This document shows, one piece after another, positions 7,279 through 7,884 of a DNA stretch of 64,000 nt. The position numbers and the translations under genes are program-made. The DNA comes from Narcine bancroftii (Eukaryota). The stretch covers positions 8,308,001 to 8,372,000 of the forward strand of contig NC_091474.1 of assembly GCF_036971445.1 (NCBI RefSeq), written 5' to 3'. The first letter of the stretch is position 1, and each line of letters opens with the position of its first letter. The notes under the pieces were generated by a model that saw only the letters and a program-made list of their open reading frames with translations, made no database searches and was not told the DNA's origin.

Positions 7279-7434
7279 CTACATGAGGCCCAATGATCCA
7301 TACTTGTCATAAATATTCCGCTTTGTGGCATCAGTCAGAATTGCATGTGCATTATTTATTTCCTTAAATTTCTCTGATGCTTCAGGATTATCTGGATTCT
7401 TGTCAGGATGGTACTTCAATGCAAGTTTTCTGTT
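7279..7434 (-). pseudogene. Partial direct duplicate of DNAJC5 exon 3 inside intron 3, with acceptor retained and an early stop
   Basis: 7285-7434 is identical to 7954-8103 (150/150 by eye). Frame reads KLALKYHPD...YGSLGL-M-stop, with TAG at 7281-7279. Confidence 0.85.
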
Positions 7435-7884
7435 AAGGAGTTTCAACTAACGATTAGAGAGCAGTAAAAATGAGAGAAAAAGAAAAGCTAACATTTGAAA
7501 TAGTAAAATCTCTGTTTACTGCAAAGTGAGGGTGGGGGGGGGGTGGAGGGAAGTGAAGCCATGTTGGAAAGGAACAGGAAAAGTACATGGAGTTATAAAA
7601 ATTCTGATGCTTGCAAGAGGTCTTGTTCTTCATTATTTGTTAATAAATAAAATGGCCAGAATTTCCCTAACCTCTTAATAAAGTAAGGCAGCATTTGTTT
7701 CTAAGTCAGGTAAAATTAATACATCAGAGTGGTTAATCTCGACTTCGTCATCGTTTGACTTTGTATTTGTCGCTCTTCCTGCAAATCCAATTACGTTAGT
7801 AATTCAGTTATTTGTCCAAAGATTAGAAAAGATTAAAACCAATTAGATTCTGGTAAATATTTCAGTACTATCGGAACTTCTCAC

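Follow-up and report, generated by a model that had tools for sequence, protein, structure and literature searches.

A partial copy of DNAJC5 exon 3 in intron 3, likely a templated repair insertion and a neutral pseudoexon

The minus strand of the window (the whole 64-kb stretch of DNA analysed) carries DNAJC5, the gene of cysteine string protein (CSP), and intron 3 of this gene harbours an insert of about 310 nt in which a partial copy of exon 3 is fused directly, without any spacer, to an inverted piece of the intron that reaches down to about position 7131. The copy is real and is present in three samples. We propose that the insert is a complex templated insertion, likely generated by one template-switching repair event, and that the exon copy is likely skipped by splicing as a neutral pseudoexon; we give this reading a probability of roughly 80%. 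If it is correct, the import is little, the insert being just another local templated duplication, in this case one that by chance took in an exon. The copy is a trap for gene prediction and for read mapping in DNAJC5.

The DNAJC5 locus and the anatomy of the insert

Contigs of four of the ten listed runs were compared with positions 6000-8300, and the figures given here rest on the records listed. X1 is a DNA run that may be the source of the assembly, X5 is another sample from another study, X6 is a third sample and X10 is a relative. X5 and X6, which both come from one study, were treated as RNA in view of their loose ends, which correspond to exons 2 and 4. Copy number beyond the 64-kb window was judged from the compared contigs. 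Three exons of the gene lie in the window, the last exon being outside it:

11148-11265, minus strand: exon 2, the first coding exon (ATG at 11254), with the N-terminal part of the J-domain (translation; Pfam DnaJ 2-21; X5 and X6 loose ends at 8102 match the exon end).
7885-8098, minus strand: exon 3 (214 nt), with the HPD motif, the remaining J-domain and the linker; template of the copy (phmmer; joined by splicing at either end in X5 and X6; four of four X10 differences synonymous).
2808-2982, minus strand: exon 4 (175 nt), with the cysteine string (frame open after exon 3; X5 and X6 loose ends at 7884 match its start).

Joined together, exons 2, 3 and 4 give an open frame of 165 aa in translation, and the protein presumably resembles Torpedo CSP. 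Translation, Pfam and phmmer place the hallmarks of CSP in the expected order, a J-domain with HPD, a linker and a cysteine string, as in DNAJC5/CSP-alpha (PDB codes: 2ctw and 2n04). Exon 3 matches 2ctw_A (DnaJ homolog subfamily C member 5) with a phmmer E value of 5.7e-39, and it differs from the solved sequences at two of the first 64 residues. The loose ends of X5 and X6 at 8102 and 7884 match the end of exon 2 and the start of exon 4, thus normal exon 2-3-4 splicing is present.

The insert and its templates are the following:

7267-7439, minus strand: partial copy (173 nt) of 8109-7935, that is, the last ~10 nt of intron 2 and the first ~163 nt of exon 3, donor-less (alignments; bridged by contigs in X1 and X5 at both ends and in X6 at the 3' end).
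7131-7270, plus strand: inverted piece, joined to the exon copy, that reproduces 6114-6168 and 6207-6293, omits the 6168-6206 hairpin and has a 10-nt fold-back at about 7212-7221 (self-alignments; shared X1 node 7131-7194).
6114-6297, minus strand: intronic template of the inverted piece, with which it would pair in a predicted pre-mRNA stem (no third arm in the window; duplex -220.8 kcal/mol).

The initial annotation had described 150 identical bp at 7285-7434 and 7954-8103, 669 apart, with imperfect similarity on both sides. The self-match reproduces this core at 100% over 150 nt and the flanking similarity stands as well, with a full match of 7267-7439 to 7935-8109 (175 columns, 97.7%, 2 gaps, E 7e-79); the extent has to be revised, since the copy starts ~10 nt above the acceptor, at 7439, runs to 7267 and lies inside the larger insertion. 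The copy differs from exon 3 by two 1-nt losses and two transitions, and all four fall outside the identical core (P about 0.002 under an even spread). X10 has no listed difference from exon 3 at the three exonic difference positions, which implies that these changes arose on the copy. The clustering of mutations near the joins of the insert is as for complex templated insertions of the MMBIR/TMEJ type, and with errors clustered at the joins a clean 150-nt core needs no selection.

Three other origins were discarded. The 5' end of the copy follows intron 2 (10 of 11 nt) and not exon 2, therefore it was copied from the gene and not from an mRNA, and a retrocopy is ruled out by the presence of intron 2 acceptor sequence in place of exon 2. 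A 669-nt tandem duplication was rejected because the similarity covers 175 nt only. A high-copy transposon was rejected in view of the two single arms in the window and of X1, which lists no further contigs on 6077-7950.

In the inverted piece, 7266-7221 is the reverse complement of 6123-6168 (93%) and 7217-7127 that of 6207-6297 (91 nt, 98%). The omitted stretch, 6168-6206, is a hairpin, and it is replaced by a 10-nt fold-back that makes a small palindrome perfect. Two CpG-type transitions are present in the inverted arms. Neither template is more than about 1 kb from the insert, and the combination of a direct and an inverted piece entails a change of strand, as templated insertion requires. 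The middle join has a 4-nt TTTG microhomology on the assumption that a 5-nt tandem repeat lost one of its units (start at 6114), and otherwise none. The lower join, at which the X10 contig ceases to fit, has a 2-nt microhomology and a near match, and the upper join is too ambiguous to read.

In the order of events that we propose, a broken end near 7440 first copied 8109-7935 on the gene strand. Synthesis would then have jumped, through the 4-nt TTTG microhomology, to position 6114 of the opposite strand, bypassed the 6168-6206 hairpin by way of a short fold-back, continued as far as about 6293 and returned to the original site at about 7131. The repair pathway would be either MMBIR-like or polymerase-theta-like, which are not separable here. 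The copy has no donor, and so it is predicted to fail exon definition; the normal exon 2-3-4 mRNA would result and any leak would be minor.

In the accessible parts of the literature, the joins of such events show raised point mutation, templated insertion and microhomology (PMC4352052), microhomologies of 2-5 bp occur with multiple switches (PMC7407515), and multi-template germline insertions are found in healthy people, with 33 and 26 complex events in two people (PMC8421209). The insert resembles these MMB-TI, MMBIR and FoSTeS events, as far as the same three sources describe them, in its local templates, its direct plus inverted piece, its putative join microhomology and its join mutations, and in being germline. 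It differs from them in that the templates are about 500-1000 nt off, versus 100 bp in the search of PMC8421209, in that the parental allele is lacking and in that polymerase-theta repair is possible.

Two further single-copy inverted duplications with 99-100% identity are found in the window, which makes such events background here. The first, in intron 2 of DNAJC5, is an inverted repeat of 214 nt (9823-10036 / 10089-10302; 99.5-100%, single copy in the window) with a 52-nt spacer, which by its sequence might be either a MITE-like element or a fold-back duplication that arose very recently. The second is an inverted duplication of 244 nt (56174-56417 / 56950-57193; 99.2%, single copy in the window) whose arms are about 530 nt apart. 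Together with the insert, the 64 kb hold three near-perfect local inversions, perhaps a sign that they arise at a high rate in this genome. Intron 3 also contains a 31-bp satellite of about 1.8 kb (3565-5358).

Splice signals, predicted products and RNA-like contigs

The signals in and around the copy, all read on the gene strand, are:

7430-7431, minus strand: copied acceptor AG (exon start 7429); pyrimidine-content rank 17 of 148 YAG sites of intron 3, where the real exon 4 acceptor ranks 21.
7447-7448, minus strand: competing AG 17 nt upstream and outside the copy (exon start 7446); 84% pyrimidine at -40 to -4, rank 2 of 148.
7279-7281, minus strand: stop codon in the J-domain frame of the copy, resulting from a 1-nt loss (translation).
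6663-6668, minus strand: closest AATAAA on the downstream side of the copy, about 610 nt after the stop and a candidate signal for intronic polyadenylation (motif scan).

Splice-site figures are crude consensus or pyrimidine counts and not trained scores. On this basis, the copied acceptor, noted already in the initial annotation, is plausible, its pyrimidine rank being near that of the real exon 4 acceptor, and the region before the copy (7446-7490, minus strand) is pyrimidine-rich with branch-point-like motifs. The copy ends 50 nt before the exon 3 donor. The best of 24 GT sites in the 300 nt past the copy reaches 6/9 of the consensus, a score of at least 6/9 being found at 35 of 288 GT sites of the intron, versus 8/9 for the donors of exons 2 and 3. 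With the predicted pairing of the inverted arms (-220.8 kcal/mol), candidate donors at 7245, 7229 and 7206 would be 0-15% unpaired.

The predicted products are mostly those described previously. Joining exon 2 to 7429 would give 85 aa ending at the stop at 7281-7279, and the whole J-domain would be held in this product, as Pfam DnaJ is split between 2-21 in exon 2 (19.3 bits, alone below the 27.8 cut-off) and 23-63 of 63 in the copy; translation and Pfam bear out this earlier prediction. The frameshift product of exon 3 joined to 7429 was likewise recovered, with a predicted 115 aa ending KTCIEVPS. Exon 3 joined to 7446 stays in frame, with a predicted 162 aa and HPD at 43 and 120, exon 2 joined to 7446 would stop after 36 aa, and read-through from exon 3 would yield 120 aa.

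A stable short product needs the copy to act as a last exon. According to this unlikely alternative, the copy is a working alternative last exon, entered from exon 2 at 7429 (85 aa, J-only) or from exon 3 at 7446 (162 aa), with cleavage after AATAAA 6668, and provides a soluble CSP fragment in regulated amount. A single repair accident might then have given the lineage a new DNAJC5 last exon, the copied acceptor, the stronger AG, the donor-hiding stem and AATAAA 6668 making some transcripts end in intron 3 and yielding tissue-dependent soluble fragments of 85 or 162 aa; we consider this doubtful. If true, it would provide a natural unanchored CSP J-domain fragment and a datable last exon born from a repair scar in a core synaptic chaperone.

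Several observations are in line with last-exon use. Both frames are open as predicted, the acceptor region is pyrimidine-rich, and acceptor (AG 7430 or 7447), stop (7279) and AATAAA (6668) follow in the order an alternative last exon requires; the motif scan finds no canonical signal other than AATAAA 6668 from the copy down to 5400. The copy also inherits, at 7360-7355, the coding AATAAA of exon 3 (8029-8024, minus strand), with no donor after it, and contigs continue past this motif. RNA-like contigs cover 6785-7314 (X5) and 6796-7314 (X6). The accessible text of PMC9809949 has CSP without the cysteine string as cytosolic, and that of PMC13187750 indicates that an exon with a stop can escape NMD when an intronic poly(A) site follows it. 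The 144-nt core shows no amino-acid change; however, this outcome is expected without selection (P 0.13-0.57 at 0.5-1.8%), thus it is no sign of selection. Against last-exon use, no 7885->7446 or 7885->7429 joint is found among the X5 and X6 records listed, the exon contig of X10 is unbroken, and among 32 hits of 26-86-aa protein relatives none of the 12 examined ends like the 85-aa product; those 12 are mostly exon-3 frames read into the intron or fragments from other organisms.

The depth of the contigs argues for read-through. In X5, an unspliced contig (7404-7913) runs from exon 3 through its donor into the copy at a depth of 14.6, and the contig leaving the copy has the like depth of 17, which implies that read-through explains the downstream RNA; in X6 the depth is 13.2 upstream and 7.15 downstream of the copy. 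Depths on the copy flanks (7-17) compare with about 190-650 for exon 3 contigs, contig depth being a poor measure of expression, and the resulting ratio of about 3% for the 3' flank of the copy is arithmetic on per-contig means and not an expression level. More generally, no joint into or out of the copy occurs among the X5 and X6 records listed (8 of 10 and 8 of 8), bearing in mind that contigs lose rare forms, and no poly(A) loose end occurs among them, contigs being unable to display RNA ends. Three partly matching records in each of the two runs are explained by exon 2, exon 4 and another DnaJ gene. High-depth records at 7400-7433 (X5 and X6) belong to another DnaJ gene that passes the 85% setting, with 4 mismatches in 34 and loose on both sides.

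One observation stands against the pseudoexon reading: among the X6 records listed, the shared 149 nt are entered solely through the exon 2 join and are left, on one path, through the 3' flank of the copy, so that copy use would look alike. Contigs are interrupted at the 150-nt repeat and lose rare forms, and so they can neither show nor exclude splicing of exon 2 to the copy. Read-through suffices for the RNA data, and copy use of a few percent would also fit. The junctions 11148->7429 and 7885->7429 had been recommended as an RNA-seq check, which would mislead: the former is identical to the normal 11148->8098 for 145 nt beyond the join and the latter is identical to an exon-3 back-splice (circle) over the same 145 nt, therefore short reads cannot separate them from regular splicing or an exon-3 circle. 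To be diagnostic, a check has to use long reads, long pairs or the 7885->7446 join.

RNA-like contigs cover the first ~1.1 kb of intron 3 (6785-7884) and stop at 6785 (X5) and 6796 (X6). This coverage could reflect nascent RNA, A+T dropout or intronic polyadenylation after exon-3 read-through (120 aa). An X5 piece ends at 6650, 13 nt beyond AATAAA 6668; these contig ends were not counted as a poly(A) site, because they come from one study in an A+T-rich region and X5 pieces of like depth occur below 6543. Coverage gaps are present at 7434-7523 beside a G-run (X6) and at 8156-8300 (X5 and X6), and such gaps prove nothing; it is common for short low-depth tips, as beside the G-run, to be trimmed from contigs of this kind. 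X5 has 2 nt fewer in the G-run at 7534 than the window does, which reflects either an allele or a homopolymer error.

The age of the copy and the comparison with a relative

The introns of X10 differ from those of the window at 18 of 202 and 26 of 313 positions (8-9%), and exon 3 shows four synonymous differences. One X10 contig passes unbroken through exon 3. Another fits 6931-7132 and is followed by 84 unfitting letters exactly at the lower join, and no contig joins 7132 to 7440. X10, of which 92% was read and which covers 17 of 30 bins, has gaps at 7155-7462 and 6077-6692, and gaps of this kind prove nothing. The probability of an unchanged core is 0.22 at 1%, 0.05 at 2% and 0.002 at 4.3% divergence; the last value applies to a copy as old as the X10 split, so a templated insertion requires the copy to be either young or converted. 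Judged from these sequences, the copy is probably young.

Conversion would be the key element of a further reading, which we regard as improbable, namely that the duplication is older and that its central 150 nt were reset by gene conversion from exon 3. The confinement of the differences to the ends of the copy would suit such a history, as would the two CpG-type transitions of the inverted arms, which look like ageing. However, errors clustered at the joins give the same pattern without a second event, and near-identity outside the joins holds for the inverted arms as well (91 nt at 98%).

Possible cassette use, related systems and the copy in independent samples

Slightly less probable again than gene conversion is the use of the copy as a poison cassette exon that tunes the CSP level via NMD. 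All eight cassette routes (four candidate donors, after exon 2 or exon 3) lead in silico to a premature stop at residue 85-115, as this reading would have it. A poison exon needs a usable 5' splice site, whereas the best candidate reaches only the 6/9 shared by 35 of 288 GT sites of the intron and is predicted to be paired within the stem. No loose end or joint leaves the 3' flank of the copy among the X5 and X6 records listed, with the reservation that transcripts subject to NMD would be scarce. Poison exons tend to be conserved across species, which counts against a cassette of this kind. A mutually exclusive exon is disfavoured by the same lack of a donor, by the broken frame and the stop, and by the early stops of all eight routes.

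The functional isoform or NMD switch raised in the initial annotation is accordingly unsupported: the copy is donor-less, its best GT (6/9) is predicted to be paired and no copy joint occurs among the X5 and X6 records listed. As for the proposed soluble, possibly dominant-negative co-chaperone, solubility agrees with the cytosolic location of CSP without its cysteine string in the accessible text of PMC9809949, but the dominant-negative form found in the literature is the opposite construct: in the part of PMC3744087 available, it is HPD-AAA, anchored and with a dead HPD, the reverse of a J-only design. No direct test of the effects of a J-domain-only CSP was found in the literature, and neither a duplicated DNAJC5 exon nor a natural J-only isoform was found in the open-licence literature. 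As general background, a Csp2 variant exists that is shortened C-terminally and keeps the cysteine string. The accessible portion of a CSP review mentions splice variants for Drosophila only (PMC4447612).

SNAP25 exons 5a/5b are similar to the DNAJC5 arrangement in that a second copy of a coding exon lies in a neighbouring intron of a presynaptic gene; in the accessible text of PMC2581893 they are whole exons, both yield full proteins and they are more than 400 million years old. The DNAJC5 copy, in contrast, is partial, donor-less and frameshifted, and none was seen in X10, the single relative compared, which is uncovered at 7155-7462. Poison exons that escape NMD by intronic polyadenylation, as far as PMC13187750 describes them, share with the copy an acceptor, a premature stop and a downstream intronic AATAAA; the copy differs in that no usable donor was found and that neither inclusion nor poly(A) use was observed.

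An assembly or polishing artefact of one 150-nt read length, suggested by the identical core of exactly 150 nt and raised as a caution in the initial annotation, is refuted and has practically no probability left, because both joins are carried by X1 contigs (7165-7314 and 7405-7983) with no other letters, both are bridged in X5 (6785-7314 and 7404-7913) and the 3' join in X6 (6796-7314), these being other samples of another study, and the shared X1 stretches (7954-8103 and 7131-7194) form separate contigs with a depth of 6 versus 2.7-3.4 on the flanks. The whole repeat is spanned by no contig; X1 7405-7983 connects the end of exon 3 with the start of the copy, thus the assembled order is the sole linear path.

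Other features of the window were noted in passing. A short tandem array follows exon 4 (2223-2490, with 69-nt spacings in the self-match). On the strand opposite to DNAJC5, an open frame at 38457-38810 (plus strand) has a CTLH match (E 3e-9) and a weak LisH match, and we take it to be a likely GID8 exon. Between DNAJC5 and this frame there is a G+C-rich, low-complexity region (about 27600-29760) with a 140-N gap (29422-29561). Seven pieces of one interspersed repeat family, 78-98% alike, are located at 8657-9364, 13821-14174, 16878-17042, 19891-20444, 32275-33010, 55172-55510 and 59896-60124; reverse-transcriptase-like open frames were recognized in them by eye, and the family is presumably LINE-like.
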